From Rhizodiscina lignyota (taxonomy: Eukaryota), in the NCBI GenBank assembly GCA_010015805.1, contig ML978133.1, positions 124,001-188,000 of the forward strand: a DNA stretch of 64,000 nt, read 5' to 3'. Below, in pieces: positions 1-44,618 of this stretch; position 1 is the stretch's first letter, and each line of letters starts with the position of its first letter. The notes beneath the pieces are model-generated. The model was not told the DNA's origin. It saw only the letters and a program-made list of their open reading frames with translations, and made no database searches. Both the position numbers and the translations under genes were made by a program.

Positions 1-957
1 CCGGCTAAAAAGTTTTGGCGAACTTGGAGCTTCCCGTTTCATATGTGTAGCAAGCATTGTGAGGGCACAGAGAGGGATCGACGGTTGCCCGATATGGTTC
101 GTGAAGGCACAAATTGACCAGGTCCAATAAACCGACGACGGGGAGGCTTCATTCAACATCTCTGCGTGGCGGTCATGACCAGCTTGCTGGCTAGCCAGTC
201 ATCATGGCGGACTATCAATGGAACAATGGCTGGAGTACTGTGACGGCGCATGTACGTTTCGTAGTCAACGCACGTCGACTAGATAAGATTTTTATTGTTA
301 GTCATTTCACCATACGACGTGCATTTCATCCTGCAAAATTTTCTCCAAGCTACCTATTCCTACCTACCTCTACCGTTCCAATGGCGCGTTGGGGGTTTCT
401 GTCGCCTTTGGCGGCTCCGTCCTGATCATGGCCTACCTCTCAACAACTTTACACACAAACTTCACTTGCACTGGATTGAACGATCATGTTTTCATAGCTC
501 CTTCTTCCAAGTACCAAAAAACAACAAAAGGAATTTATCATACACCGTAAGTGTTGCATGCAGCTCACCACCAGTCAAGAAAGCAAAATGACAAAAGAAC
601 ATGAGGGATCTCGGATTGCCCATGATGCGGTTTTCTCGTCAGTCCGGTCCAGCAGCCATGAGCATGAATATGAACGAACCATGTATGCTATGTGATTTGT
701 GCGAATACGAGAGCCATAACACAAGAGAGAAATTGAAAGAATAAGATTCAGCTTGCTTTAGCTTCGCTCATGTGCTTGCGCTTCAACTCAACTGATCCCG
801 TATCAAGAAAAGAATCCACCAGCAGCGCCTCTGGAAAACCGCCGCTGATGAATAAGTTTCAAAACTCTCTTCCTGCCATTAGCCGGCCCGATTCCATCAT
901 CGTTTTTCTTCCAGGTCAACCTCACCGCTTCGGCTTCCAAACGTCCAACAACCCCCC

Positions 958-3900
958 TCAAAGTCTCAACCCCTTCAAAATCTCCTGCGCCATATTCTTA
1001 TACACTATCACATTCCCCTCCATTTTCTTAAACTGAATCCCATGCAGACTCAACAACGGGACCTTGACAATGAAGATCTCAAACCTCAGCACCATGCTCT
1101 CTCCAATATCATTCTGCACATGGGTCATCGTCTCGCCCGCTGGCCTCGCTCTCGGCCCGCGTTCGCGCTCTGTAGGTGTCGGTGGCACCGGCTTGCTCGC
1201 AGGATCACGATCGCTCGCGTCTGATTCGTCGGTGTTGGTATAGCTCAAGTCGTGCGCGCCGTTCGACGGACCGCTGGTGCTACCACCATGACGATTACGC
1301 TGGGAGCGCGGGGTATGCGGCGTCATGGGTGTCGTAGGGCTCCTTACAGCGTCACGGAACTCATCGCGGTCCTTGTGTCCCACGCCGAACGAGATCTTCC
1401 GTCGGTGTCCATGCCCCAGTCCCGCGCTCTCCGGGCTGCGCGGACTCGCGATGTCAGAGAGCGGGCCTCTCTTCTCGTTCTCTTTGAGGTTGATGGAGGG
1501 CGCGTGGCGGCATGAGAAGCCCCCTTTGATCTCCCAGTACTCGACACCGAGTTGTCTCAGGACCCTAATGATCTCCGCGCGGATTTCGGGGAGCGGCCTG
1601 TTGCTCGTGGTGCTGACGCTGAATAGACCCTTCAAGTATACTGGCTTCATGCTGTCCATGCCGCGGATGTCATCTGTGTCGCGCCGTCTTCCCGTCTCGG
1701 CATGCTGTTCGGCGTCTGTTTCGGTTGTGGTGTGGGCGTGGCCGAGGTCAGTATCTTGATTGCGCGTGCCGTGACGCTGCAGACGGCGAGTTTGGATAGA
1801 CTCCCTTCTTGCGTGTCCTAAGCTCTTCGTCCGGCTTGCAGGAGCGCCGCTAGTGCGCTGCTTTGAGTTGACTTCATCACCAGTTGCATCGCCGGGTCCA
1901 GCACCCTGTACAGCAACGCTGCTTCCATCACTGCCGCTGGTAGGGGGAACTTCACTCTGCCCGCTTGTACTAGCTTCTGCAAGCGCGGCTGTCCCATCTG
2001 AAGCACCACGCTGCCGCCCCATACGCCGTCGCAATTCTGCAGAATTAACTGAAGTGGATCGGCCAAGGCCACGAAGTTTGCGACCAAAGCCTTCACCGGT
2101 TGCTGGCGGGGACAGTAGGTTATCTTGTTGCTGCTGATGGCTCGTTGCTTGCAAAGATGCTGAAGAAGGCTGATCCCGATCCCTTGATCTACGAACGCTG
2201 AAGCTGCGGCGCACTGGACCTGAACTATGAGTGTCCGCTGGTGCTGAGATTGCAACGGTTGGAGGATGAGTCCTATCTGGTCGTTCCGGTCGCTCACGAG
2301 TTCTGCGGGTGCTGAGACGTCGGAGCAAGCCTGCAGCAGTACTTTCTTTCTTCGCGGAAGGCGGAGGGTCTGCAGGTGGCGTGACAATGGAAGGTGGAAC
2401 GGGTCCTTGTGGGACATTGAGCTGCAGCTCTTGTACTCCATCTGCAATCTCGTCTTCTCCATGAGTTCTTGCTCTTGGCCTCGTCCTACCACCGGTTGGT
2501 TTCTCCCCTGCCATTTCCGGCGTTGCAGCATTGGTATAGGCTGCTTCGGGAGGCTGCACATCTGGCATCTTGAAAATCTTCTCCGAACTTGTAGGTGCTG
2601 GGATGGATAAAGCGCCCGGATTCGCCTCCTGTCTTTCCCGCTCCTGCTTCTCACGGACGAGAAAATATACGCTGACAAGCGGGCTGAACGCATTGATAGG
2701 ATCTGTACCCAATGCTATTGCTTCGCTCGAAGGTATGCTGAGTGCGTCTTTGCTTGTCGTGCTGTTCCTCCTCTTATAAAAATCAAAAACACCTCGTTTC
2801 CTCTCCTCTCCAGGTGTCTGACTGATGCTCCTGCGTGCTGCGGCCCGCACCGCACGCTGGTATTCCTCGCTATCGAGAATCCTAGTGAGCTCCTTCATGA
2901 TGTAATCCGCAGAACCAAAATCGAACCCCTCCATTTTCTCAACAACGGCTGTATCGAGGGGTAGTTGTAAAGGTTCTCGGTGAGGAAGGAAATTCTCGGG
3001 AGGACCGCCAAATCCTTTTGTCATCCACGGATGATTCATTATCTCCTGTAAGCTTGCTCGCTGCTTTGGGTCCGTAACCAGCATGCGACTGATGAGGTTC
3101 TTGCATTCTAGCCACTCTTTAGTACGTCGAACAAATGCTCTTGAAGAACAATATAAATGGCTTACCCTGTGATAGCCAGGGAGGATACTCCACATGGCCC
3201 TTTTTGATTTTAGCATGCAACTGCGGCATGCTCTGATCATCAAATGGCACTTTCCCACAAACAAGCACATAAAGTACAATGCCAAAACTCCAAACGTCAA
3301 CTTCTGGACCCGTGTATTGCTTTGCTTGCAGCAGCTCCGGTGCTGCAAAATACAAGCTGCCGCAGAATGTTTTCAGGTGGCTTTGGGGACTGAAGAGATT
3401 GCTCAGCCCAAAGTCAATGATCTTGATATCACCAGTTTTGCTGATTAAAATGTTCTCAATCTTCAAATCACGATGGACAATGCTATTCCGGTGGCAGTAA
3501 TCCAGAGCAGAGGCGATTTGACGGCCGAATTTACGAGCCTGCTTCTCCTTCAGACGACCATGGCTGATGATATAATCGAGCATTTGTCCTCCGTTCACAT
3601 ATTCGAAGAGCATGTACCAGTGGTAATTGGTACGAACAACGTCGCGCATGCCGCAGATGTAAGGGTGGTTTACGAGGGAAACAATGGCAGCTTCACGGGC
3701 CGTGCGAATCTCCTTGGAATGATCTGCGCGTTCGCGTTCCTGGGGAGTCCTGTGTTCGTCGGTTGACACTCTGGGGACAATCTTGACGGCGACCTGGTCA
3801 CACGACGAATCAACATCTCGCAGAATATCGAGCAATCAGAGGCAACATACCTGTTCTCCCGTTTCCGTGTTCTTCGCCAACTTCACCTTGCCCATACTCC

Positions 3901-7349: not shown

Positions 7350-8099
7350 CCGCGGCGGCGGTGAACAAGCAGATGAAGTAGAAAATGAAGACGATTGACC
7401 GATGCACTCTATTCTGACTGAACATATCTGATAAATCACGTGAAATTCCCCAGGTACGCGTAAATTACATAATCTAAGCCCAGAAGTGATGCAATACACC
7501 TTTAGTCAATAAGGGACCTCCGTAACTTTGCTGAAGCACTTAGTAATTTTCACATGTTTCGGGATAGAACGAGCACCTGAGTTTTATTAACTACATATTC
7601 AAACCATTAGGGCGGAATTGAAGGAGCCTTGCCTGAGTTGTGTGCAATACCACGAAGAGGTCGTGATAATCAGCCAACGCATGCTGGAATTACACACGCA
7701 AATAATGTATACCAGAGCACGACTCGAATCTGGGTACGACCTCAGCAGAGTAAAGGAATGAATTCTAGTATCCCACGGAAATTACGTAGGCGGTGGCATT
7801 AATGTTTAGAAATGTCGATTGCAAAAGCTATGGCCAGTGCGGCGGCTCTCGGTTCAGCCGTAAAGCCCGTACGATATCGAGGCACACCCTGTCATTTGCC
7901 CGGCTTTTCTCTAACTTATGGCACGGACAAACCCCTGCCGAGCCGAGCGTATCAAGATACCTTATGGGCTTCAAGCCTCTCTAAACAGGGTAGGAGATCC
8001 GACGGTCACGTGCAACAGATCACTAAATGCAACACCATCCTAAAATTTAACTACGAATTTCAAAGTACGATTTCTTAATAACTATAAGAGATAAACTTC

Positions 8100-10228
8100 A
8101 AATTAAAACTGGTAATAGATTATATTATTACGTATAAGTTTTATTAAGAAAACCTTTCTAGAAAGTGCCTTGTTGGTTTTGTTTTGCGCCCTAATCGTGT
8201 TTGGGTTGCTTTAGGTACTAGAATAGTATTTGCTTTATGAAAAATCTTAACCTCTTCTAGAATCTGCTAATACTTATTCTTCTACTTCCTTAGCTTCTTA
8301 TTAGCTGCTTTAGCTTTAGATTAAAGCTATTTATTAGCCTATTTTTCTATACGAGCCTTCTAAAGTTGTATCTTTTTCTAAGCCGCCTCTTCCGCCTTTT
8401 GCAACCTCGCTACCGCTAGTTATTCTCGCCTTTAATTGGCTAAGCGCTCTTTTTCTTGTTTAGCTTCTTATTTACGCTTCTTTTCCTCCTGTTTCTATAC
8501 TTCCTATTGTCGTTAATCTTTCTCTTCCTATGCAATTCGCTCTTATACTAGTTAAACCTTTAAAGGTAAGTATATAATCGCTTTATAGTTAGATTTATCG
8601 CGAAGTCGATTAAATAGTAGCTTGCCTTAGTAGCCTTTAAGCTTTTCTACGCCTAGTACCTGTTTTAAACTATCTCTTTTAATTCTAAGCTAGTAGTTTT
8701 TAAAGACTAGATACTTAATATAGTTAGTAATCTTTATAATTGTCATGGATCGCCCATTCAGGTCGGGTTCACCTCGGATAAACCTCGGCCCGATCACGTG
8801 ACGCTTGGCATTCCTGTATATACTCTCAACTTCTGCGAACCTTCTAAAGGTTCGCCTAATATTAACGTTACAACTTACCTGCTTGCTCGCTACGCTCGTG
8901 CAGCCGTGACAATAATATTCTCTTAAATTAATTTATTAATAGTCTCTTTTAGAACTATACGAACCTTCCTCTAATTAGATACTAAGAGTACTAAACTATT
9001 TAAAGTACTTAAGGCTAGCTAGGATGTAGGTCTAACTTATAAGAGTACTATTTTAGGATTAAAGGGCTAGATACTAGCCTGTTAAAACCCTAATTTAATA
9101 ATATTTTCAGTAAATACTAATTAAAAAGCCGGCTAGAAGAGTAAGAAGAACTACTACTTACTAAGGAAGGTTAGTCCTTAAGTCTTTATCTACTAGGTAT
9201 CTAGATTTATACTATAATAATGCCTAATACTTAGAAAGTAGGTAAGATCTAGTAGCTAGAGTCTATAGGTTGAATAAGGTAGAAATACTACTATAAGCAC
9301 TTTATACTTATTATACTAATCTAGAAAGCGTATATTAATATAGCTATTATAGCTATTAACGATTAGAAGCCGATAATTACGACTATTACGTGCTTTCTTC
9401 TTACTAGCTAGGTCGAAAACTATTATTAGCTACTATATTATAAGGTCCTTATTAGTCTAGCCGCTTAGCGTCGCTATAAAGTAGTAGTTATACTCTTTAG
9501 GATTAAAATCGTAAAGCTAGCTATCTAGAATATTACCTAGAGCGCCTAAGTAGATTAGAGTTAGTCGTAATATAGTACTATCTGTATAGTAGCTAGTAAT
9601 AAGAGTAATCTAGTTACGAGAGCTATCTTAGCCTATACTAATAAGTCGACGTTTCTAAGCTTCTTTTTAGGTGAAAATACGCTTTATCTTATGTAAGATA
9701 CCTAGTAGAAAGCCCTTTTCATCTATATTATAACAGTTTTCGGCTCTAATATTATATTACTAGATTTTCGATTATAGCTATTAAGTTAGTAACGAAGTAA
9801 GGTAGTATAGTAATACTTACTAGGTTAAAATATAGCTTATACTTATACGTATTATCTACCTTCTTTCGGCTTTAATCCGCGCCTACTAGGTAGCTTAATA
9901 GTAACTCTTTTTCATGCTGTTAAATAAAGCGAGAAGCCTACTTCTTTCCTAGCTCTTTCTTAGCTAAATTACTAGTAAAGCGCTAGATTATTAGCTATAT
10001 AGGAGGTATGCCTCGCTTAATAAGTATATCGATATAGTTTATAAGGTCTTTTTCTTATTAATACGAGAGTAATGACTAGTGTTCTTGTAAACGGCCTTTC
10101 GGCTTCGATATGCCTTTATGGCGGCGTAGAAGTATACTAGGTACAACCCTATACTTTTCAGCTATTGCCCTATAAAGAGGAGGATCTTAGCTTTTCAAAT
10201 CTTCAAGCGCGAGCTCAATTGCGCTCAT
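8100..10228 (-). pseudogene. DDE_1 (pogo/Fot1) transposase pseudogene with many stops; 3' end approximate
   Basis: Starts MSAIELALEDLKS*DPPLYRAIAEKYRVVPSILLRRHKG (HTH). YNIDEKGFLLGI (~9700-9735) matches YNMDEKGF. RLLIVNSYNSY...FLPYSTYRL*LLDL matches RLLIxDGHGSH...PPHSTHRLQPLD after C>T/G>A changes. Confidence 0.9.
8741..8911. mobile_element. Solo LTR (171 bp) of an LTR retrotransposon inserted in the transposase
   Basis: Ends TGTCATGG...CCGTGACA (TG..CA, short inverted ends); 5-bp target duplication ATAAT at 8736-8740 and 8912-8916; normal GC content inside RIPed DNA; internal TATATA. Confidence 0.85.
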
Positions 10229-31176: not shown

Positions 31177-34100
31177 TTACAATATCTCTTTCATGACGTC
31201 TTGCAAAATGGGGCGTTGATTGAACAGTCCTTTCTGCCCTATCCTCCCCCTCTTTTCTGCTGTCTTCGCCCCGGTCCGCATACTCTGCGGACTTACATTA
31301 GCACCTTCAATGTCTGCTAGGGCTTTTCTCTTCTGAGAACTCCTTGCAGCCAACGGGCTTCTGGTTGGCGAGTCCCCACGCGCTCTTTTCCTTCTCACCT
31401 CTGGACTCATTGACGGCTCGGCCACTTTCCCTGTCGTCGCTTGCGTCTGACTCCCACCACCATCGATGCACACGTGTCCGTCCAGTGCTTCAGCCTTGAG
31501 ATCCACCATCCAGCCCTTCTCGTCACAAATTCTCACCAAGCCCTTCAGGACTTCGTTGCCGCCCCCGGACAGTGTCTTCCTGCTTCCAATTAGGATAAGC
31601 TTGCTCCGAGCTCGCGTCACGGCGACGTTCACTCTGCGCCAATCCTTTAACAAGTCGCCGACATTGCATGTGTCGTTGGACCGCACAAATGACACAACAA
31701 TAGCTTCTTTATCGCGGCCTTGAAACTTGTCTGCCGTGTGCGTCTCTACGCCCGCTGCATCAGCCACATAGTTTCCCTGCCTAGCGCCTTTGACTGGCGA
31801 AAGGGGAGAGCTGCTTGAGAGGTGACGGAGAGACTGCTTTAGCAGCGCAAGTTGACTGCGATAGAACGTTATGACGCCGACTTCCGAAGGGGAGACACCA
31901 CACAGCAAGAAGGAACAAACTGCTTGTACGGTAAGGCGAGCTTCGAGATTGTTGATGATGCGCGGGCCGGAGAGAGTCTCCAAGGATTGGGGAAGATTAT
32001 CGGTGTTGAGGAAGAGGACTTTGCGACCCGGTGAGAGAATAGCCGATAGATGGCAGGATGGTGATGATGGCGCACGGCAGAATGGCGTCACTTGAAGTCG
32101 CATAGATAGAGAGTCGAGATGAAGTGAGGAGAGAGCTGTAAGCTGGGGAACTTGCAGCTCTCGCATTGCGACGTCTTCATTTCCGCACTTCAGTCTTCCG
32201 CTGTAAATGAGCTCGTTCGAGAGAAGCATTACATCTGCGGCCATGCGGTATTGGTGCTCCAGGCTGGTCACTGCTTCGGGGTGATGTTCTGATAGCAGAC
32301 GGAAGAGACTCATATCCAAGCCTCCTTCGAGTGCTTCCTTGTTCTGCACAAGAGGAGGGAGCTGGAAGTGATCGCCAACTAGGACGAACGTCTTCGCCAT
32401 CCGAATCGGACCAAGGCATACTGGCAGTGTGATCTGCGATGCTTCGTCCACGATACAATAGTCGAACCTCCTTTGTGAGAACAATGGATGATTAATTCCT
32501 AGACAGGTGGTTGCGACCACGGGAGGTCTGTGCCACGAGTTGACGACTTCCTCAAGTGAGTCTTTCGGCTGCGCGGCCAAGATGGCGAACTCTTGAACAT
32601 CAGGATGGACCTTTGCAGCAGCACCTAGTCTAAGCACAGAAAAGCCGCCGTCTCTTATCTTCAGCAGAATATTGTCGACAGCGGTGTGAGTGTACGAAGT
32701 AAGCAAAACACTCTTCCCTTGTGATACAAGAGCTCGAATGATGTGCGCAATTGTGGTCGTCTTGCCTGTTCCCGGCATTCCAAGAACGAGAGCATAGTCC
32801 TGTGCTGCCATGACCTTGGCGACTGCTGCTTGTTGATCATGATTCATTTGCATAGACGTGGATGAATCAATTACGTTGCTAGAGGGAGCGTTCTTGAATT
32901 GCGGAGTGCGGTCTTCGATGATAAGCGCGCGGAGGTCTGCAGCCTTGAAGACATCGTCGTCCATGATAGAGATGAGATTATTCCGAACGGTTGCCATGCC
33001 ATTGCTGAATTCGTCCTTGTCTAATCTGTAGACAATAGGCGTTTCGTCCGCAGATTGAGAGGCGACGGTTGGGAAGGAGTCCTTCGATACCTCCATAATT
33101 CCGACAAAATCCTGATTGGAATCCGCGTCGAATCCGGGACGTCGGGTTCGCGCATTGTGTAGACGCCGATCGACAGCGACAGTTATGCGCTTTCTCCTGA
33201 CATTAGTCACATAGCCGTTGGCAAGAGCAAAGTGTCCCTCTTCGTCTGATATTACAATTGGCTCTCCAACTGTAATTTGTGACTCGTTAAAAGAGAATCC
33301 AGGACGGGTCTTCTGTTTAACCATCGTATACTGGAAGCGATTGATCTTTCCGCCCTCTTTCTGTTCAAGTGCAGAGCCAGGTTCGATGATAACGTGCGAG
33401 AAGCATCTACCCAGTCTTTCGCGTTCGTGGCTCAACATCGTCCACAGTTCACGTCGGAACTTCATCATTTCCGATTCCTCCTTTGTTAGAAGTCGATCCC
33501 ACTTGATGAAGAAGTCTCGATGAACTGGCTTAAGATGACCCACGAGATTGTCGAACTTCTCTTTGTCTTTGAACTCATTGCCGTTGCCGTCCTCAGATAA
33601 TCTGTGGTACAGGAAGCACGTCGTCTGAGCGTAGCACTTTCCACACAGGTGAGAACCATTAAGAACAGGCGGAAGCTGTAGTCGCTCTCGCACATAACAT
33701 GCGAGCTCGTTACGCTTCATGACCATGTGCAAAAGCTCGTGTCGTATGGCAGGGATGCGTCTCATTTCCGAAGTCTCGAGATAGTAAAGCACGCCGTAGA
33801 AGACATCCAGGTCATATCGGTCACCCAGGAGCAGAGTGTACAGTGTCGTCTGCGCCTGATGAGCCTCGCTAGCTCGCTTGCCGGTTTTGACTTCCAGTGG
33901 CACAGTAAGTTTCCTCTCTCCGTCTTTGTCAGACATGTGAACCTGTACTGTGGCATCAATGTTGCCTTTCAATCCATATTTCGGTGACCAGATGTGCTCT
34001 TCGATATCCAAGAGCTTGTTAATGCTCATGGTAACCTGCAAGCCGTTGCGATCGTTGACGGTGGATTCGGCAGTGGGTCGAGCCTGAACGAAGGTTGCAG

Positions 34101-36536
34101 CCCAAGATTGCATTTCAGGTAGCTTACTCTTCAAATGCTCCATCACTTGGTTCTCGTTCAACCCAATCTCGGCCATTGTTTCGAAGTGCCTTGGTAGGAG
34201 AGAACCGATAAGCGCTTCCAGCGCTTCCGTTTCCCAACTGTTGGACTTCATCGCCTCCTGGAAGAGCTCATGAAGCAGATGGCCATACAGCTGCGGCGGA
34301 CTGGCTTGCCCCGTTGACTTTACACGATCTTGGAGAACAGCTCGTCTCAGACATTGAAATGAGTCTGCGACGACTGTTGCCGAGACCAAGTGGTCTGGAT
34401 GCAAGATCAACAGATTCTGAGAGTTGTTGATCAAGCATTCACCACTAGGAGAAAATTCCCCGATAACGTGGACGTACGAGCCTTCTATACAAGGAGTATC
34501 GTACCATGCTTGCCGTAGAGTGATGGCCTTGACAGTCTTTCTCTTCTCATCTTCGACGAGGAGCACCTAACGTGTTTGTCAATAAGATGCTATCGATGTC
34601 GAAGAGGACTTCTTACCTTCTCAAATTGTGAGCGACCTCGATCATCTTGATAATGACCCTCGGCTACCTTAGTCACGAGATAACGTTGAATGGCGCGAGA
34701 ATTTTGTTCACTCTTTAGTTTCTTAGTAAATGACTTTCATATCTACAATGGAAAGCGGCCTACTTGAGCTTGACTGGCAGCAGTCCCGTTAGTGTGCTGT
34801 GTAGCAACAGCTTCAGCTGCGACGAATTGTTCGACATCGATGTCATCACCTCCAAAGTCCTCATCCGAATCGAGGTCAATCACATCGGGGTCATTGGCAG
34901 CACCAACAACGTTGGGTGCCTCTTGACCTATATTTCGTTGATTTCCTGGGGGAGCTAGCTGTTTAGATAATCCAGCTGGATGTTGATGCTGAGATGGTTC
35001 TGCTGGTGGTCTCGCATCGTACATGGACGCGACGATTTCCAAATCTGCAGCAAATTCCTCTCCATCATCCTCGAACTCATCAGAATCTTCTTCTTCTTCG
35101 TGTTTCTGAGGACGGTCTGGTTGCTGATGAATTCTGGTTTCGCCGGAATGCCGAACAGGAGACTGTCGGCTATCCTGATTTTCAAGCATTCCATGCTCCT
35201 GCACAATAGGAGGTCTTTGAGCTGCGGCAAGTGCTCCTTGTGATTCAACTGCCTCAATCATGTCGATGTCGATGTCGCCATCTCCAAACTCAGACGAGCT
35301 GGATCGTTCCGATCCTCGATCAGCAGCAGCAATAGCACCAGTCTCCACATGAGCAGCATCTAAATCTGTAGGGGGACTAGATGCGGTTTCTGGTCGCTCA
35401 ACTACTGGGTCTAAACGCTGTAGGGGAGAGCCGTAATCGCCAATACCTAGTCCGCCGGTTTCGGGAAGCGGTGATGAGCTCGAAGGGCCTCGTGGTGAGC
35501 CCGTTGGAGCAGGCTTCGCAAGCGTTTCCTGGATCCTTTCGACGAGTCTTCCGATCCTCGACTCATTAGCTCCAGGTAGATCAACTTCATCAGACGCATC
35601 GTTCGCTGTCGAGACTTTCCCATCACGGAAGGTTCCTGCAGTTCTTCGCCTTTTTGGCTTCGTTGCGCTAGGCCATTCAACTCCGCAGCTGGCCCATCTT
35701 CGCAATCCACTGACGCTTCCAGCTGTTGCTGATGAGTGTGGAGATGATTTCTCTATGAGATGTGCGAATGCGGCCGTTTTTGCACCACCCGGTGTTTCTT
35801 TCAAATCCGCGTCGACGCCGTACCGATTCCACAAGTCCGCAGCTGGATCAGCTTGGGGAGTTCTGAGTGATTTGTGAAGGTTCTGGAGATCGAATGTCTC
35901 ATTGTTGCCGGTGAAAAAAGCTGAAGTCTCGTTCTGTGAGCAAGGTGCTGGTGATGAACTTCGCGCCCTCTTTCTCTTTCGAGCTGGACGATTATCGGGT
36001 GTCGTATTATTGCCACCATGCTGCCAAATCACGCGCTCTTCGGGAGATATTGCGTTCGTGGGGTTTTGATTTGCTGCTTCATCCATCCCTCCTATCAGAT
36101 CAGCGAGCGGTAGCCTCGCTGCAGGAGTTGATGGAGGTATAGCCTTCGCTGCAGGTGCTACGTTGAGACTCTTTGGAGCTTCTTGCACCCGTGACTGCTC
36201 TAATGTCTTCGATATATCATTCGCAGCCTCCTTTTCGTTCTCCTTGTTGGCTTCATCCGCATTCGGCGTCTGAGACGGTTTTCCCTCCATAAATTGAAAA
36301 GCTTTCAGTTTTGTTTTAGTTTGGGTCGAAGGGTCAATTGCCGGTCTAGGCATGACATTATTCGTCTTGTCAGCCTTTGGCTGCAAAACATTGTCGGCGC
36401 TTTTCGTGCGATTCCAGGTTGGTCTCGGCTGTTCAAATTAGCAAGCTACAAGCGTGGCCGGAGAAGGGAAACGGACGCGTGAATTTGTTTTCGCCTTATG
36501 ACTCTGCTCAAAGAAGGATTTCTGGCGAGTCGACAT
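31177..36536 (-). CDS. DNA2: DNA replication helicase/nuclease Dna2 (introns 36429-36476, ~34714-34763, ~34567-34616)
   Basis: LILHPDHLVSAT, CLRRAVL, EEHIWSPKYGLKGNIDAT, PLEVKTG, CxxCxxxxxC Fe-S Cys, GMPGTGKT, DEASQ, VGDHFQLPP, QYRM, DKFQGRDK, RRVNVAVTRAR. Confidence 0.97.
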
Positions 36537-38743: not shown

Positions 38744-40532
38744 TCATGCAAGCTTCATCGTCGCGTACCCACTCTGTGCTACGTCCCGACATCTTTGTCT
38801 ATACTCTGGCGCCGTGCCGTTGTATCTCGCAACAATTCGCTTCTGCTTTCCTGGTACATTCTTATTGACACCAGTCTAATGCGCATGTCAGTGTATTATT
38901 ATTAGGTAATGTTTGTGGGCCTCTTACCATCCAGCTGTCGACCTCTTGACTGAGCAACCCCTTTGAACAATCGTGGAGATGCGCTGTCCATTGCTCAGCA
39001 CCTTCGGGCTTCGCTTCAATCCAGGTTTTGCCATGCGATTCAAGATACTCTATGCAATCTGCAACCCAATCGACTCCGAATTCGATACTTCGGGGGAAGT
39101 TGCCGAAACAGCTATGTGGACCCTGTTCATTTATTAGCGTATTGAACATGCATCTCTGATCAAATCTCCCCATACCATTATCATAAGGAGGTTAGGGAAC
39201 TGTGGAACAGTAATGCCAAGATAAGTTTTGGGTCCCCCGCTCCATGCGTCCTTCAATTTAATTCCATTGATACCTCTAATATCGAGGACATCGTATGCTC
39301 CAGTTACCTAGATTGTGTGGAGCAAATTAGCACAGCCCTGGAATTCAAGTTTGCACCACAAGATCACTTACCATGTCGAAGCCGGTAGCATAGATGAGCA
39401 TGTCGAACTCGAAATCTTCAGCAGAAGTTTTCAGGCCTTTGCTCGTAATTTTCTCAATCGGAGTTTCGTTGATATCAACTAAGCGAACATTCGGCTGATT
39501 GAAGGCTTCGTAATAATTCGTTTCCATCGGGACTCTCCTCGTTCCAAAGCCGTGGTGCTTCGGAATCAATTTCTCTGCTGTCGCCGGGTCATGGACTCGC
39601 TGTCTTATTTTGTTCGCCACGAAGTCGCTGACTAGCTTATTTGCTTCTCTGTCCCGCCCCATATCCCGAAAATTGCTCAACCAAAGCCCAAATCCTGGCT
39701 GTCCATATAGATGCTCCCACAGTGCCTCACGCTCTTCCTGGGTCACTTCCCACGTCCCCCGCGGCTCGGCTGGATGAATAAAATTCATGTTCGTCTCCGA
39801 GCACAGCTTGAAAAGCTCCTTGTAACCTTGCCTTATCTTTTCCATCTCTTCCTTTGAGATCTTCCCGTTATGCAGCGGAATCGCCCAATTTGGCGTTCGT
39901 TGGAATACTGTCAGATGCCCGACAGTTTTGGCTATCTCTGGAATGGCTTGGATGCTGGTCGCTCCGGTCCCAATGATGCCAACTCTTTTGCCTTCAAAGC
40001 TGACACTCTCTTTCGGCCAGCGGCCAGTGTGGTATGCAACCCCCTTGTAGTCGTCGACACCAGGTATATTCGGTAGCGTTGGTGTACTCAAAATACCCAT
40101 AGCTGTCACGAGAAAGCGGCACGTGAAGAATTCACCACCTTCAGTGCCGACTTTCCAAGTCCTGCTCTCTTCCTGGAAATGTGCACTACGCACCCGTGTG
40201 TGGAACTGCATATCCTTTCTCAAATCAAATTTGTCACAAATGAAGTTGGCATACGCCTCTGTCTCGCGCGCTGGTGCAAAGTGCTCGGTCCAATCCCATT
40301 GGTCCAGGAGCTCCTGGCTCCAGGAAAAGCTGTATGAGTAACTTTCTGAGTCGAAACGGGCTCCTGGGTAACGATTCCAGTACCAAGTGCCACCAACTCC
40401 GGAGCCAGCCTCCAGCAGTTTGACGCGGAGGTTCAGTTTGCGGAGCTTGTAAAGGGAGTAGATACCCGACAAGCCTCCACCAATGATTAGAGCATCCCAA
40501 TCAGGCTGGGAAGCATCGCCGAGGGAACCCAT
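38744..40532 (-). CDS. Type I Baeyer-Villiger monooxygenase (cyclohexanone/phenylacetone monooxygenase family), 3 introns
   Basis: GGGLSG, GGTWYWNRYPGARFDSE, fingerprint YKGVAYHTGRWP, GTGATSIQ, FQRTPNW, ATGFD, FPNL, DSWM.GVNKNVPGK. Confidence 0.95.
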
Positions 40533-41339
40533 GATGTACTATGAAGTGAATAAAATTAAAAGAATACACGTTGTATGGTATCAAGTCAAAGATTGAACAA
40601 AGCGTCCGCAAATGCGTTGACAAAATGTAGTGATACAGGAGGTGGGGAAAGATTGTGGTCTTATCCTATCGGAGCTCCTTTCAACCTCAGCTCAGCAGCA
40701 AAGGATAACCGATATGGTTCAAGAAGCGGATACATATCTTCCATAATGATGCAATCACAACAATACGAAGCTGTACAAAGGTACTCTCTAAAGTGGAGTA
40801 AAGTCAACTAAGAGGTGGATTACCGAGGACGGCCGACACGGGTATCTCGGAAGGCCCGTGGTTCCTGGAGTCAGGAGACGTTCATTGGCTTTCATTCGGG
40901 CCGATGGAGAACTCATCGATGTCGTTTTAAAGCTGGTTTCAGTTCAACATCAAAGTTCATGAGCGGAAAAGGCCAGCTTACTAAAAGGGTATAAGGGTAG
41001 TAAGTGGAGACTTGCGGATCGACACCAAAATTTCCGACCGGGGCCAGTCGTGTGCTCTGCCGCAACGGCACACGTGCACCAAACGCCTTCGGCGTAACAG
41101 ATCAAGTGCTCTCTATTCTTCCCTTTGTATAGTTGTTTCACCAACATGTCCACGCGAGCTCTCTACGGCTTCTCTCACCTCCCTTTTGCTGCTCAGACAC
41201 TTGGCAGAGTGGCGCAGTTACCAACCAGTGTTCATCGACCACATTGCAGTGTGGCAGTGTAGGTTCAGCTGAAACCTTTATATTCAATCTCAACCGCCCA
41301 CTCTCTGTCGAAACATTTTGTAATCTAGTTACTGTCTTC

Positions 41340-42443
41340 ATGGCTGAAGTGATTGGCGCTATAGCCAGTGGTATTACTCTCGCTACCCTATTCAAATCAT
41401 GCCTTGATGCGTTTGACCTCTTCCAGACCGGCAGGAATATTGATACAGATCTTAAACGCCTCGTCGTCCGGCTGAATATCGAAAAATGTCGACTGTATAC
41501 CTGGGGAGAGGCGATGGGCCTCATAGTGACACCACCAACTGGACAAGTACGACTACCCGATTCCTCACCACATCAGGACTTAGTCAAAGAAGCTTTGGAG
41601 GAGATACTACAACTATTGAGCGACTCCTCCAAAATAAAGTCTCGTTACGGTTGCGAAACTGTTCTCGTCAGTTCTAAAGATGACGAGGTTGGTCCAGTCG
41701 TAGACTTGGCTGCCTCGTTCGCACGGTTTACTGTCTCTGGCCAGTCTCAACAGTCCTCCACTAAAAGACTGGTAGCAAAGACACGATGGGCAATATCAGA
41801 CCGTAAAAAGTTCGCCGAACTCATTATCGAAGTTAGATCGTTTGTCGATGGGTTACAAGAGATTACAAAATCCATTTTCACGGTGGCCAGACAAGAAGGC
41901 ATGTTGAGATTTGGCATTCAGCAAATTACCAGCTTGGACACGCTTGAAATTGTCGCGGAAGCGTGTGAGGCAGATTATCCTGACATTTCCGACGCTGCTT
42001 CCGTCAAGATTGACGTCCTAACTATCGCGACCGGTAGAAGACGTGAAATCGAAGGATGGGTTGACGATGTGGACGATGAGGATGAAACCACCGTCTCTTC
42101 TCAGGCACACGACGAGGCTGGTGTTGAAAATACTCTTGTTAATCCCAATGGATTTCCCTCACTACCATCAATGTTATCACCAGAGACGGAACTGGAGTTA
42201 TCTCGAGAAGCTCAGCGCATGGCGACAGAGCTAGAAAGGGCACGAGAGGAAAGCGCCAAAGCAGAGCGTGACCGTGCCAAAGCTGAACGTAACAGGAAGA
42301 ATATGGAGGAGGAGCTAGAAGCACTGACTGCTAGTCTATTTGAAGAAGCTAATACTATGGTTGCTGCCGCTCGGAAAGAGAAGGAGGATTTGGAAGTGCG
42401 ATATGAGCAACTCGCGAAAAACTTCGAAGGAATTACGGAGTAA
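41340..42443 (+). CDS. HeLo (prion-inhibition and propagation) domain protein with C-terminal Sec2-like coiled coil
   Basis: MAEVIGAIASGITLATLFKSCLDAFDLFQTGR...RLNIEKCRLYTWGEAMGL and KTRWAISDRKKFAELI..V..FVDGL resemble HET-S HeLo; C-terminal ELEALTASLFEEANTMVAAARKEK resembles the Sec2 GEF core. Confidence 0.88.
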   Translation: MAEVIGAIASGITLATLFKSCLDAFDLFQTGRNIDTDLKRLVVRLNIEKCRLYTWGEAMGLIVTPPTGQVRLPDSSPHQDLVKEALEEILQLLSDSSKIKSRYGCETVLVSSKDDEVGPVVDLAASFARFTVSGQSQQSSTKRLVAKTRWAISDRKKFAELIIEVRSFVDGLQEITKSIFTVARQEGMLRFGIQQITSLDTLEIVAEACEADYPDISDAASVKIDVLTIATGRRREIEGWVDDVDDEDETTVSSQAHDEAGVENTLVNPNGFPSLPSMLSPETELELSREAQRMATELERAREESAKAERDRAKAERNRKNMEEELEALTASLFEEANTMVAAARKEKEDLEVRYEQLAKNFEGITE

Positions 42444-43310
42444 ATAATGTTCGTTATTCCCTCTATCAATGAAGTCTTACTCCAAGTTCATATCGTACAG
42501 ATAAGATGGGTGACATGCTCATTTCAGTGCCATGATGCCTACGCTAGATTAGGGCATTGTAGGACAGAATCTGTTTCAGGCTCTGGAACACCTGTGGATA
42601 TACACCGCTAGAGAGACGGGATAATGAGAGAAAGTCAGCAACAAAGCCCATTTCCTATCAAGCCTGAGTTTGCCCTGAACAAGTATGAGTACTAACCACA
42701 TTCTCTTCAACTGGTCCTTTACCGCTCGTGATAGCCATTTTCATCGTATTGACCAGGATCGGATGGTGGAGGTTACAGAGGTACCCAACTGGTGTGGCGC
42801 CGAGCGTGCCCTGGGCTTCGCCTAATTTCGGTACGGCCAACCGGAAATTGGGTACGTCTGTGCCCCGCCTGGACGCGAGTCGTAACATTTCGCCCTCACA
42901 GTCAACTTCCACGATCTTTTAAATTTATGCCCCTTGCATGCTCTAGCCATTTCGATCTCAGAGCTTGTGTCATCCAAGATGGACTTTCACGGCTCCACCT
43001 CTCCAATCACAAGATGATGGATGGCGTCTGCCTTGTCATGGTTTTTTCTGTCCTGTGCCGCTGGTGCCTACGTTGGCGTGGCGTTAGGCAGTCACCGAGA
43101 TGTACCCTACACGATATATTTCTATCCCGAGACTCGCCTGACTGACTTTGAAGGTGAAGGGGTTTCAATTTGGGATATCATTCATGCTAGTATGAGCGAT
43201 AAGTTGCTTTAGTAATGCTTCTCTAAAGTGTGTTTTACATCGCAATCTTTCGCAGAACACGGACAACACAGCAGCTTAAAAGATACAGAAGCCAGCAGCA
43301 TTACTGCATT

Positions 43311-44618
43311 ATGAGGGGAGCGGTACAGCAGAACTCGCGAAGAAGCCTCCGGTCCAACGGTCGTCTAGGAGTCCGGAAAGCAGTGAGTAAGATTGGTCCG
43401 CAAAACCACCAACTACGGAGAAGCTCCTTACAGCATGTCAAGAGCTCTGGGCAAAGCACGGCGGCCTCTCGCTTGAAATGCCTCGTGCATTCCCTTCTCC
43501 AACAATATCACGATCAGACTGCCATTGATGTTAATCGAAATACTCCGCTATTCAGTCTACCCGTCGAGCTTATCCACGAGGTAGCGGGGCACTTGTCCCC
43601 GGAGGCTGCTATATGTCTTACTTTGACATGCAGATATAGTCTCGATATTCTAAGGACTTCTTCGTGGGCCGAGCCAAGCATCAAGAAATGTCGATACATC
43701 TCTGAAGGAACTGGTATAGAGCACCGCCAGGTTTTGCTGTTGCTCCTCGAGCGCGATACGGCAGAGTTGGCATACTGTCCTCGATGTAACACGCTACATC
43801 CGTCGCTCAAAGCACCAAGAGAACACAGACAAACCAAGTTAACTAAGAGTTGCCTTGGCCAGGATGCTGTCATCGACTACTTGTCGCAAGGGAGTTCAGA
43901 CGGTTACAGTCTGGTCTTCCCACATATCGAAAAGGCACTGAAGTCATACCCGGAGGATGATGTCGTACCTGAGATCTTAGGCCCACCGATCGAATTGCTT
44001 GCCGGCAGATTCACTATTCAGCACGATCGCATCAGCTACACTTTGGCTTCTTCTGCAAGGCGTGTCGGACGAAATATCATCATCAACCATGAGCACATTC
44101 TCAGGGCCACTACATCGAAGTCTCGGCTTCGAGCAAGCGATGTGCTTTCATTGCCGTTGCGCCTCTGCCCACATCAGACCACTGCAACTTCGCCTCCACC
44201 ACCATCCCGCTACACTCCCCCGCTCCGTCTCAATGGACCACTGCTCACGCATGCCATTGTAGCAGCCCTTCCGGTTACCTCGAAGGCGGGAGTGCTTGAG
44301 TCCAATACGTTTCGCGTCCCAACACCCCTCGAACGCGAGCAGATGACCGCCGCAGATGCTGGAGGCGATGTTTTGTGGCGATGCCGGAACTGCCCCACGA
44401 AATTCCGTGTGCAGTATCGGAACACGGATGGGCCAAGCTCAGACAATGGAGAGTTAATTATCACAACTTGGCATTGCTTTGGGCACGACATGTATACTGC
44501 CCAAAAGTATTGGAAAATGCTTGTTAGACGTGAGGGTGGGCTCCTTGGACGCAGCACGCGCAATAGCGAGTTCTGGAGCTCTCCCGTTCGTAGCATCCCG
44601 GACTTTCGGTGCGAGTAA
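43311..44618 (+). CDS. F-box-like protein, single long ORF; start codon uncertain
   Basis: LFSLPVELIHEVAGHLSPEAAICLTLTCR (F-box-like); LLERD..YCPRCNTLH; LRLCPH; CRNCPTKF; ITTWHCFG, typical of expanded fungal F-box families. Confidence 0.75.
   Translation: MRGAVQQNSRRSLRSNGRLGVRKAVSKIGPQNHQLRRSSLQHVKSSGQSTAASRLKCLVHSLLQQYHDQTAIDVNRNTPLFSLPVELIHEVAGHLSPEAAICLTLTCRYSLDILRTSSWAEPSIKKCRYISEGTGIEHRQVLLLLLERDTAELAYCPRCNTLHPSLKAPREHRQTKLTKSCLGQDAVIDYLSQGSSDGYSLVFPHIEKALKSYPEDDVVPEILGPPIELLAGRFTIQHDRISYTLASSARRVGRNIIINHEHILRATTSKSRLRASDVLSLPLRLCPHQTTATSPPPPSRYTPPLRLNGPLLTHAIVAALPVTSKAGVLESNTFRVPTPLEREQMTAADAGGDVLWRCRNCPTKFRVQYRNTDGPSSDNGELIITTWHCFGHDMYTAQKYWKMLVRREGGLLGRSTRNSEFWSSPVRSIPDFRCE

Follow-up and report, generated by a model that had tools for sequence, protein, structure and literature searches.

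A rare fungal HeLo protein ending in a Sec2-derived helix: a candidate death executioner with a putative Rab-binding control element

The HET-S protein of Podospora anserina combines a HeLo domain with a HET-s-type prion-forming domain, and its activation comes either from the NLR NWD2, encoded next to it, or from the [Het-s] prion. The locus described here raises the question of what could control a HET-S-type HeLo domain when a fragment of the Rab GEF Sec2 occupies the C-terminal end of the protein. The answer proposed is a tentative one, judged to have slightly less than an even chance of being correct, namely a HET-S-type HeLo executioner in which control by amyloid and NLR would have been replaced by a captured Sec2 helix, serving as a Rab-binding bait or as a recruitment element.

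Within the window, i.e. the whole stretch of 64,000 nucleotides that was analysed, the gene consisted of a single unbroken frame from ATG to stop, encoding 367 amino acids, according to the ORF list and its translation (Table 1). The original prediction of a single ORF fusing HeLo and Sec2 domains was upheld, as the frame is open through both domains at exactly the coordinates given in Table 1. Also, the motifs quoted with it were retrieved from the translation (F18..C21.D23.F25, R51L..WG.A58, R149WAI.D..KF158, and the ELEALTASLFEEANTMVAAARKEK stretch). Both domain calls were borne out by Pfam, the HeLo domain (PF14479) with a score far over the cut-off (E 8.8e-39; 133.9 bits, cut-off 23.2; profile positions 4-203 of 205) and the Sec2p domain (PF06428) with an E of 1.7e-15 (57.2 bits, cut-off 28.5; profile positions 3-59 of 92). 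Similarly, the yeast Sec2 motif cited in the prediction agreed with the motif in the PDB alignment of the tail. The coiled coil that had been proposed was present, but its estimated length of about 70 amino acids was too short, the helix in the structural model comprising residues 281-365. A hidden 3' exon lengthening the Sec2 domain was ruled out, because three homologues terminate nearby, their ends differing by no more than about 14 residues.

Table 1. Position of the gene and its parts in the window
Feature	Coordinates	Strand	Remarks
Complete CDS	41340..42443	+	367 codons followed by TAA; intron unnecessary (ORF list, translation)
N-terminal hydrophobic HeLo helix, presumed membrane-inserting	41340..41417	+	Residues 1-26; helix 2-26 in the model
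Pfam HeLo match	41364..41948	+	PF14479, residues 9-203; the structural domain reaches about residue 247 (window position 42080)
Linker, acidic, poorly conserved, predicted to be disordered	42081..42164	+	Residues 248-275
Block A, conserved beginning of the tail helix, 5' of the Pfam Sec2p match	42165..42254	+	Residues 276-305
Pfam Sec2p match, inside the long helix 281-365	42255..42425	+	PF06428, residues 306-362
Block B, Sec4p-contact core	42312..42374	+	Residues 325-345, equivalent to yeast Sec2p 100-120; F334 corresponds to F109

The N-terminal domains of HET-s and HET-S were the top matches in a sequence search of the PDB (E 3.4e-21 to 4.8e-18), with residue 1 of the protein pairing with residue 3 of HET-s chain 2wvn. 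The AlphaFold2 model (mean pLDDT 82.3) consisted of a helical domain (residues 1-247), a disordered linker, and one long helix. When this model was compared with the PDB by Foldseek, four HET-s/HET-S chains alone (2wvn, 2wvq, and 2wvo) were retrieved at E <= 0.001, with E values of 2.3e-6 to 2.5e-5 and TM scores of 0.63-0.67 by target. Membership of the HeLo family, with a HET-s-like fold as modelled, is confirmed for the N-terminal part. In the alignment with HET-s, the protein has N at position 33 and D at position 23; the inactivating P33, given in PMC3321046 as the position-33 residue of non-toxic HET-s, is absent. The HeLo part is a putative pore-forming executioner of the HET-S type and presumably toxic. 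In addition, the ESM Atlas returned one cluster, which was HeLo-only (score 0.75).

No prion-forming family was listed by Pfam for the protein even at E values up to 10, none other than the two families mentioned above scored over its cut-off, and the HeLo domain of the AlphaFold2 model was followed by an acidic disordered linker and an alpha-helix in place of an amyloid motif. Domain scanning covered 30 ORFs (12 and 18), comprising those of at least 180 amino acids throughout the window and some shorter ones near the locus, and revealed no NLR or HET-domain gene among them, neither NACHT nor NB-ARC being found. The only STAND-type signal in the window was a P-loop match below the cut-off, located inside Dna2. 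Besides Dna2, the neighbouring genes were those of a mitochondrial carrier, an FMO-like protein, and a DUF3433 protein. With no prion-forming domain in the protein and no NLR among the 30 ORFs, a pair of the HET-S/NWD2 type was ruled out; the lack of a prion-forming domain, NACHT, and NB-ARC had been noted beforehand and was sustained by the Pfam listing to E 10. A second Sec2-like gene was not found elsewhere in the window among the same 30 ORFs.

The linker had pLDDT values below 50 at residues 251-259, 261-267, and 271-273, and the three full-length fused proteins agreed at only 3 of its 28 positions. Downstream of it, the tail was modelled as one 85-residue helix with block-mean pLDDT values of 91-98. 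It starts with a conserved block (block A), in which 19 of the 30 positions were identical among the fused proteins P0001, P0002, and P0003, versus 4 of the 41 positions in the variable parts of the helix (Fisher p 2.3e-6). When searched alone against the PDB, the tail matched the yeast Sec2 coiled coil (2eqb, 4zdw, 2ocy, and 2e7s; E 4.8e-10 to 2.8e-8), aligning without gaps over 75 residues with Sec2p residues 61-135, whereas GRAB and Rabin8 gave weaker matches (E 1.1e-4 to 1.4e-3). By residue mapping, the tail is the equivalent of yeast Sec2p residues 51-142 approximately. A chance match to a generic coiled coil was ruled out, because the alignment was gapless and at motif level and the Pfam score was twice the cut-off. 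By homology, the tail is expected to dimerise as a parallel coiled coil; a two-copy complex prediction for residues 272-367, performed without an alignment, gave no answer (score 0.00, mark 0.32). Sequence searches traced the integrated tail to a host-type protein, as its greatest similarity was to the canonical Sec2 proteins of Dothideomycetes, namely those of Diplodia seriata (59% identity over 49% of the tail), Piedraia hortae (52%), and Neodothiora populina (52%). A search of the 90% database with the tail region retrieved the query and one canonical Sec2, the query being short relative to the size of that database; for this region, the exhaustive search of representatives was more informative.

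Conservation of the Rab-contact surface was assessed at 19 Sec4p-contact positions of Sec2p (about 96-124), taken from Table 1 of PMC9508438. Fourteen of these were identical between the tail and yeast, including L104, T105, L108, F109, N113, M115, and K121, and the five differences were K96N, N98E, V101L, D103A, and Y124E. Although D103 and Y124 are listed as salt-bridge or contact residues with Sec4p (PMC9508438), position 103 is variable in canonical fungal Sec2 proteins too, its commonest residue accounting for 27%. By contrast, E100, E102, L104, T105, L108, F109, E111, A112, N113, M115, and V116 were each at least 95% conserved among 37 canonical Sec2 proteins, and all of these positions were identical in the four fused tails. 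In block B as a whole, the three full-length fused proteins agreed at 14 of the 21 positions, versus 4 of the 41 in the helix on either side (p 6.7e-6), and all four fused tails agreed at 13 of the 21, these statistics being based on four related sequences and hence on few independent comparisons. Several of the conserved residues are polar, E100, E102, T105, E111, and N113 being polar Sec4p contacts according to Table 1 of PMC9508438, and the conservation was counted in favour of a kept Rab surface. Conservation of the hydrophobic residues L104, L108, M115, and V116 is explicable by coiled-coil packing alone. Outside the contact block, R87, A90, and E91 were not conserved among the fused tails; R87, which is 97% conserved in canonical Sec2 and forms a cross-helix pair when Sec4 is bound (PMC9508438), was lost from three of the four.

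The Rab GEF core that had been predicted was not complete, as the tail does not extend beyond the position matching Sec2p residue 142 and the 142-160 segment is absent. The fused tails cover the Pfam profile from position 2 or 3 to position 58 or 62 of 92, versus about 2 to 85-91 for most canonical proteins. As reported in PMC4531439, the complex of Sec2p 51-142 with Sec4p is stable, yet exchange by this construct is 20-fold slower, near the level of F109A, and residues 142-160 are needed for full exchange activity. Since this segment is missing, the tail is probably a putative Rab binder and a poor GEF rather than an enzyme. The idea that the captured fragment senses a Rab or directs the protein to one stands in part: it fits the conservation of the contacts, the constraint on block B, and the modules of the sister proteins described below, but not as a full GEF core, and the proposed guard, decoy, heterodimer, and targeting roles are conceivable alike.

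Only four sequences with the HeLo+Sec2p layout were found in the databases searched, in line with the rarity that had been expected for this architecture, and each of them was a singleton at 90% clustering. The other three were 57-62% identical to the present protein and located on separate contigs. P0002 (62%) and P0003 (59%) had the complete layout and matched along 99% of the length, and P0014 was an N-truncated copy; the length difference within the coil was exactly seven residues, i.e. one heptad. The closest named relative, P0004 of Zopfia rhizophila, was a partial model ending at the linker. In a tree based on the HeLo domain only, the three Sec2p-tailed proteins and the truncated Zopfia protein formed a clade (SH-aLRT 99), and in a tree of the tails the four fused tails were on the same side of a 98/98 branch. 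A single origin of the fusion is shown by these trees. No description of a HeLo/Sec2 architecture was found among the papers listed, as judged by title or by the opening of the abstract, although supplementary tables of NLR surveys could contain such proteins; within this scope, the combination of a HeLo domain with a captured Sec2 fragment is rare and has not been described before. Concerning the gene itself, the whole stretch was present without differences on a contig of the probable source DNA run. Three RNA-library contigs of 151 nt from a soil metatranscriptome with 6% of the sampled words mapped to the locus, two of which, about 96-98% alike, spanned positions 41788-42088; all three were within the HeLo and linker part, none extending to the Sec2 tail. 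The locus is probably a true, lineage-restricted fungal gene, the source of which is probably a Dothideomycete.

Among 55 related HeLo proteins scanned, 14 carried a further domain above the cut-off, mostly at the same C-terminal place, such as LisH, chromo, SH3, REC, SHD1, a PAN3 zinc finger, a taxilin-type coiled coil, or a Vts1-like domain. LisH is a dimerisation motif, and its occurrence at this place, like that of the taxilin-type coiled coil, would suit a generic dimerising or oligomerising coil, comparable to the brace of MLKL, for which the Sec2 ancestry and the Rab surface would be irrelevant. Such a coil would also agree with the single long helix of the AlphaFold2 model, with the one-heptad length difference, which keeps the coiled-coil register, and with the hydrophobic part of the conserved block, possibly reflecting core packing. 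This explanation is nevertheless considered unlikely, as conservation was focused in the contact block (14/21) and block A (19/30) versus 4/41 elsewhere, as the polar contacts were identical in all four fused tails, and as the chromo, SH3, SHD1, PAN3 zinc finger, and REC tails are presumably ligand-binding or signalling modules and not oligomerisers. If the tail were only a dimeriser, the gene would still be a modest new architecture in a known family.

Alternatively, the protein may be a regulator of trafficking, i.e. a GEF-poor paralogue of Sec2 that tunes polarised secretion by sequestering Sec4 or by pairing with Sec2 as a heterodimer, and that uses its HeLo domain as a membrane anchor. 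Keeping the Rab-contact residues while missing the segment for full exchange is the make-up of a competitive binder, and LopB, which together with HET-S founded the HeLo family, is tied to pathogenicity and not to incompatibility in PMC1325252. However, the HeLo domain is close to that of HET-S (E 3.4e-21), with an intact N-terminal helix and without P33, and the chromo, REC, and PAN3 zinc finger modules of the sister proteins have no link with trafficking, so that the constant HeLo domain can be read as the output and the variable tail as the input, which makes a trafficking role distinctly improbable. Finally, a young chimera without function or an artefact of annotation or assembly, to which the small number of sequences (all singletons), the restriction of the RNA-library contigs to the HeLo and linker part, and the partial Zopfia model could be ascribed, is very improbable in view of the open frame, the recurrence of the layout in three sequences on separate contigs, the similar stops, the whole-heptad difference, the selective conservation of two tail blocks, and the contig of the probable source run that spans the stretch without differences.

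As an executioner under the control of a captured Sec2 fragment, the protein would have exchanged the amyloid prion-forming C-terminal element, matched to a neighbouring NLR, for that fragment. The dimeric tail would connect a pair of HeLo domains, via the flexible linker, with the Rab machinery of exocytosis on secretory vesicles, its surface gripping a GTPase of the Sec4/Rab8 type as a bait or recruiter rather than as an enzyme. An abnormal state of this machinery would then lead to membrane attack by the HeLo domain, candidate triggers being a Rab that is stalled in the nucleotide-free or GDP-bound form, a Sec2 or Sec4 that is foreign or has been modified, or an effector of a competitor that engages the bait. 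For this sequence of events, we infer dimerisation, Rab binding, poor GEF activity, and toxicity, as well as the nature of the trigger. A constitutively dimeric HeLo protein would need another brake, and none was identified. The routes of HeLo and HELL activation described in PMC12881547, PMC3321046, and PMC9815663 are amyloid templating by an NLR, fusion to an NLR, and, in the case of certain HELL proteins, a domain resembling a kinase; control of a HeLo domain by a captured Rab GEF fragment would add one more input route. Moreover, regulated cell death would be physically coupled to the exocytic Rab cycle, the pathway of the SNARE SEC-9 that is surveyed by PLP-1. The hypothesis is directly testable, as the tail matches a biochemically well-characterised Sec2p fragment with Sec4p binding but poor GEF activity.

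Compared with HET-S, the protein shares the family and fold of the N-terminal part (2wvn, E 3.4e-21; 2wvo, E 5.1e-19; TM 0.63-0.67), the hydrophobic helix at the extreme N-terminus, and the combination of an executioner with a C-terminal control element. However, it possesses neither an amyloid motif nor an adjacent NLR, the control element being an alpha-helical Rab GEF fragment. Whereas the beta-solenoid motif of HET-S overlaps with the HeLo fold, a disordered linker separates the HeLo domain and the tail here. With Sec2p, Rabin8, and GRAB (PF06428), the gapless coil and 14 of the 19 contacts, including F109, are shared. Yet, only a fragment is present (about 51-142), and it is located C-terminally, whereas canonical Sec2 has its coil near the N-terminus, with a regulatory region behind it. 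The 142-160 segment is absent, as is PF25555, the Rabin8-like C-terminal domain carried by 22 of 36 canonical Sec2 matches.

MLKL and the fungal HELL-kinase proteins consist of a four-helix-bundle executioner, brace helices, and a regulatory domain. Their logic is similar, in that an N-terminal helical bundle that attacks membranes is under the control of a C-terminal interaction domain on the same chain without the involvement of an NLR (PMC12881547), but their regulator is a kinase or pseudokinase, whereas the present one is a Rab GEF coiled coil, and no phosphorylation switch is evident. A precedent for fungal death machinery watching a core component of exocytosis is PLP-1/SEC-9 (HET-Z) of Neurospora, Podospora, Cryphonectria, and Botrytis, a death system surveying an exocytosis SNARE for which PMC12881547 gives a 'guard' model as proposed. 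PLP-1 is an NLR sensor with a patatin effector and guards a separate, full-length SNARE, whereas in the present case the exocytic fragment is inside the executioner, without an NLR. Plant NLRs with integrated decoys, such as RGA5-HMA and RRS1-WRKY, are a further parallel, by analogy only, as they too harbour a fragment of a host protein in an immune or death protein, varied among family members; they have an NLR scaffold, whereas Pfam revealed neither NB-ARC nor NACHT in the present protein, and the papers cited here name no effector directed at fungal Sec2.

A broader interpretation, regarded as rather doubtful, is that these proteins belong to a class of fungal death proteins not recognised so far, all-in-one and independent of NLRs, in which an integrated bait, a small fragment captured from a hub protein of the host cell, replaces the amyloid motif next to the HeLo domain. 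The Sec2 coil here and, in sister proteins, the Sla1 SHD1, the PAN3 zinc finger, the chromodomain, SH3, the response-regulator receiver, LisH, the Vts1-like domain, and taxilin would be such baits, each watching over an essential pathway of its own and reporting when that pathway is tampered with or present as a non-self variant. For the Sec2 bait, nucleotide-free or GDP-bound Sec4 trapped on vesicles, or a competitor's effector on the bait, would cause clustering of HeLo domains on membranes and death. If correct, this would represent HeLo activation independent of both amyloid and NLR, guarding exocytosis. The swapping of modules on one HeLo clade suggests a wider repertoire of integrated baits in Dothideomycetes and lichen-forming fungi. 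The tail types were grouped by HeLo subclade, as their mapping on the tree required 16 changes versus a mean of 19.6 after shuffling, a value as low as 16 being reached in none of 200 shuffles.

The unbroken ORF encodes a protein (P0001, the query) with a HeLo and a Sec2p domain, both above the Pfam cut-off; the nine remaining Pfam families listed for it were all under cut-off. Compared with PDB sequences, the tail alone gave a gapless 75-residue match to the yeast Sec2 coiled coil (2eqb, 4.8e-10; 4zdw, 2ocy, and 2e7s), the matches to GRAB and Rabin8 being weaker. Pfam and PDB matches agreed on the single-ORF fusion of the original prediction, and the yeast Sec2 motif that it had given is indeed the motif in the alignment of the tail with yeast Sec2. 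As anticipated, the Pfam scan of the protein revealed no prion-forming domain (PFD), NACHT, or NB-ARC. An AlphaFold2 model (43 aligned relatives as input; mean pLDDT 82.3, pTM 0.60) consisted of a helical domain, a linker, and a tail helix. Foldseek against the PDB (E <= 0.001) retrieved solely four chains of the HET-s/HET-S N-terminal domain (target-normalised TM 0.63-0.67). Helix 1 of the HeLo model starts at residue 2, and the protein start aligns with that of HET-s. Position 33, marked out as decisive in HET-s/HET-S in PMC3321046, is asparagine here, where non-toxic HET-s has proline and toxic HET-S has histidine.

Location of the HeLo-Sec2p gene, nearby genes, and segments of the encoded protein (genes in window coordinates, segments in residues; identities count P0001 and its full-length fused homologues P0002 and P0003)
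Feature	Position	Strand	Detail
Protein kinase with C-terminal KA1 domain (MARK/Kin1-like)	958-3835	-	~38 kb from the HeLo-Sec2p gene
Dna2	31177-34566	-	neighbour
Mitochondrial carrier			neighbour
FMO-like monooxygenase	39345-40538	-	neighbour
HeLo-Sec2p gene	41340-42443	+	ATG to TAA, 367 codons
ORF without Pfam match	43227-44618	+	neighbour
DUF3433 protein			neighbour
HeLo, PF14479	residues 9-203		E 8.8e-39, 133.9 bits, cut-off 23.2
Sec2p, PF06428	residues 306-362		E 1.7e-15, 57.2 bits, cut-off 28.5; profile 3-59 of 92
Helical domain	residues 2-247		AlphaFold2 model
Linker	residues ~248-280		AlphaFold2 model, pLDDT <50 over most of its length
Tail helix, uninterrupted	residues 281-365		AlphaFold2 model, block-mean pLDDT 91-98
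HeLo	residues 1-227		129/227 identical
Linker	residues 248-275		3/28 identical
Block A	residues 276-305 (window 42165-42254)		19/30 identical
Middle of helix	residues 306-324		2/19 identical
Block B (Sec2p 100-120)	residues 325-345		14/21 identical
C-terminal end	residues 346-367		2/22 identical

The fusion is rare. A word-indexed search with the whole protein, covering ~5.8 billion 90%-clusters, yielded 64 proteins including the query, and Pfam confirmed the same layout in three others, each a singleton cluster, namely P0002 (378 aa; 62% identical, 99% coverage), P0003 (355 aa; 59% identical; a JGI model), and P0014 (an N-truncated model of 250 aa). An exhaustive phmmer search with 97 tail residues against 1.84 billion 50%-representatives (E <= 0.001) gave 38 hits, with HeLo in P0002 and P0014 only. 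The other 36 all carried Sec2p, accompanied in 22 by the Rabin8-like C-terminal domain, and at E <= 1e-4 none contained HeLo or any further domain linked to death or immunity. One Sec2p-only protein, P0065 (249 aa), carries the Sec2 core motif twice, as two Pfam Sec2p stretches, which may reflect internal duplication or mis-assembly. Since the nearest named canonical Sec2 proteins were all of Dothideomycete origin (Diplodia, Piedraia, Neodothiora, Aplosporella, Cryoendolithus, and Saccharata), the window probably stems from a Dothideomycete as well, and the likely source of the tail is the SEC2 gene of that lineage. In a tree of the coiled-coil segment (41 rows), the four fused tails fell on one side of a 98/98 branch, together with the long-branch fragment P0099, and the AU test did not reject them as one clade (p 0.48). 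Similarly, a HeLo-only tree (56 rows, quick method, omitting P0014, P0035, P0042, P0046, P0059, P0060, P0062, and the non-HeLo P0064) united P0001, P0002, and P0003 with a Zopfia rhizophila protein (SH-aLRT 99). The latter, P0004, is the nearest HeLo relative (81% identical); it is annotated as partial and ends at the linker start, and a Sec2-type tail may simply have been lost from its gene model. One capture event is the simplest reading of these sequences.

Residue F334 maps to yeast F109, an offset of +225 from yeast numbering, so that the tail helix corresponds to Sec2p ~51-142, the last residue of the protein matching residue 142. Of the 19 Sec2p residues that Table 1 of PMC9508438 gives as stably linked to Sec4p, 14 are the same here (E100, E102, L104, T105, A106, S107, L108, F109, E111, A112, N113, M115, V116, and K121); V101L is conservative, and four differ (K96N, N98E, D103A, and Y124E). 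According to PMC4531439, Sec2p 51-142 retains a stable Sec4p complex but, lacking the required 142-160 coiled-coil segment, stimulates nucleotide release 20-fold more slowly than Sec2p 1-160, at about the level of the F109A mutant. Furthermore, the fused tails cover the Pfam Sec2p profile from position 2 or 3 to 58 or 62 of 92, versus ~2 to 85-91 in most canonical proteins. Given this shorter coverage, the end at Sec2p 142, and the yeast data, the captured piece appears to be a Rab-binding fragment that retains little catalytic capacity.

Conservation among the full-length fused proteins was concentrated in two blocks of the tail helix, compared with its variable parts (Fisher's exact test, p 2.3e-6 for block A and 6.7e-6 for block B, the Sec4p-contact core). 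Block A lies at the start of the helix, upstream of the Pfam Sec2p match, and might act as a coiled-coil trigger site or dock the HeLo domain. In an alignment of 37 canonical Sec2 coiled coils and the four fused tails, from which the broken fragment P0096 had first been removed, all contact-stretch positions at least 95% conserved in canonical Sec2 were identical in the four tails. Upstream, R87 (97% in canonical proteins), A90, and E91 (86% each) were not retained; when Sec4 is bound, R87 of one helix pairs with D83 of the other (PMC9508438). Within the coil, one pair (P0001 and P0002) and the other (P0003 and P0014) are exactly seven residues, or one heptad, apart in length; the difference falls in the stretch separating block A from the Sec4-contact block (alignment columns ~315-321) and keeps the coiled-coil register. 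The conserved blocks, the retained contact positions, and this one-heptad difference argue for a functional coiled coil with a maintained Rab-facing surface, as far as four related sequences offering few independent comparisons allow.

A proposed mechanism builds on the parts seen in the protein, which are a HeLo domain of HET-S type whose N-terminal helix is intact, a flexible linker, and a Sec2-derived helix; no PFD was found in the protein and no NLR among the window ORFs scanned. The helix would dimerise in parallel, as Sec2p does, and tether two HeLo domains; the dimer would grip a Sec4-type Rab, preferring the nucleotide-free or GDP-bound form in the manner of GEF coils, and release it poorly. 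Rab binding at vesicles or the plasma membrane, or engagement of the bait by a partner that is foreign or altered, could be the trigger, whereby HeLo domains would be concentrated on the membrane and their N-terminal helices insert. A Rab-directed bait or recruitment module of this kind is favoured tentatively, at slightly less than an even chance. Alternatively, the tail may be purely a structural dimeriser, to which the kept register and uninterrupted helix conform; with the Sec4p-contact positions retained as well, this is considered unlikely. A non-lethal trafficking regulator, combining the same Rab-facing surface with a HET-S-type HeLo domain and a tail cut at Sec2p 142, seems improbable. 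A functionless chimera is very hard to credit beside two conserved blocks. Some of the probability is assigned to none of these readings. A sensor-type interpretation of the HeLo-Sec2p protein is plausible and partly supported by conservation, its function being putative.

Comparable tails occur elsewhere in the HeLo family. The Pfam scan took 56 of the 63 non-self whole-protein hits and found HeLo in 55, 14 of which had a second domain above cut-off: Sec2p (three proteins), Chromo and response-regulator receiver (two each), LisH (one, plus five just under cut-off), Vts1-like (one, plus three under cut-off), and SH3, PAN3 CCCH zinc finger, Sla1 SHD1, taxilin (marginal), and an N-terminal HET (one each). 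Except for HET, these modules lie ~60-140 residues past HeLo, in the same place as the Sec2 tail. Tail types grouped by HeLo subclade (16 changes needed, where shuffling averaged 19.6; 0 of 200 shuffles as low). Judged by domain content, the executioner is constant in this family, and what varies is a small module taken from a conserved cellular protein. By source names, many of the HeLo relatives (among P0005-P0057) come from lichen-forming fungi.

The available portions of PMC3321046, PMC9815663, PMC12881547, and PMC1325252 describe HeLo-PFD proteins with an NLR partner, Goodbye-HeLo, HeLo-NLR fusions, and HELL-kinase proteins, and mention neither a Sec2p tail nor the other sister modules. 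Likewise, no description of the HeLo-Sec2p architecture was found in the literature among the matches listed, as judged by title or abstract opening, where supplementary tables might list such layouts. JGI automatically named P0003 after both domains, so public annotation already shows the fusion, yet it is uncharacterised. As far as the searches reached, this is a rare and unreported predicted HeLo cell-death protein whose putative control module is new and neither amyloid nor NLR. Surveillance of exocytosis by fungal death systems has a precedent in PLP-1, an NLR that kills upon incompatible SEC-9, an exocytic t-SNARE, and for which a guard model is mentioned (PMC12881547). The significance of the fusion grows if an integrated-bait reading is true family-wide.

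Elsewhere in the window, ordinary genes were present, including those for the KA1 kinase, a ubiquitin-conjugating enzyme, a GH2 hydrolase, a GST, and a Zn2Cys6 factor, and no NLR or HET-domain gene was found among the 30 window ORFs scanned. Yeast Kin1 and Kin2 have a role in exocytosis; the proximity of the KA1 kinase to the HeLo-Sec2p gene is probably a coincidence. Positions 8001-10000 have a GC fraction of 0.33, against ~0.5 in the rest of the window, and may be an AT-rich repeat relic. Finally, a soil metatranscriptome library contained two 151-nt contigs matching positions 41788-42088, which stop short of the Sec2 tail; they are ~96-98% alike (3 and 6 differing letters) and may stem from RNA or from carried-over DNA, and the fungus itself or a close relative was therefore present in that soil sample.
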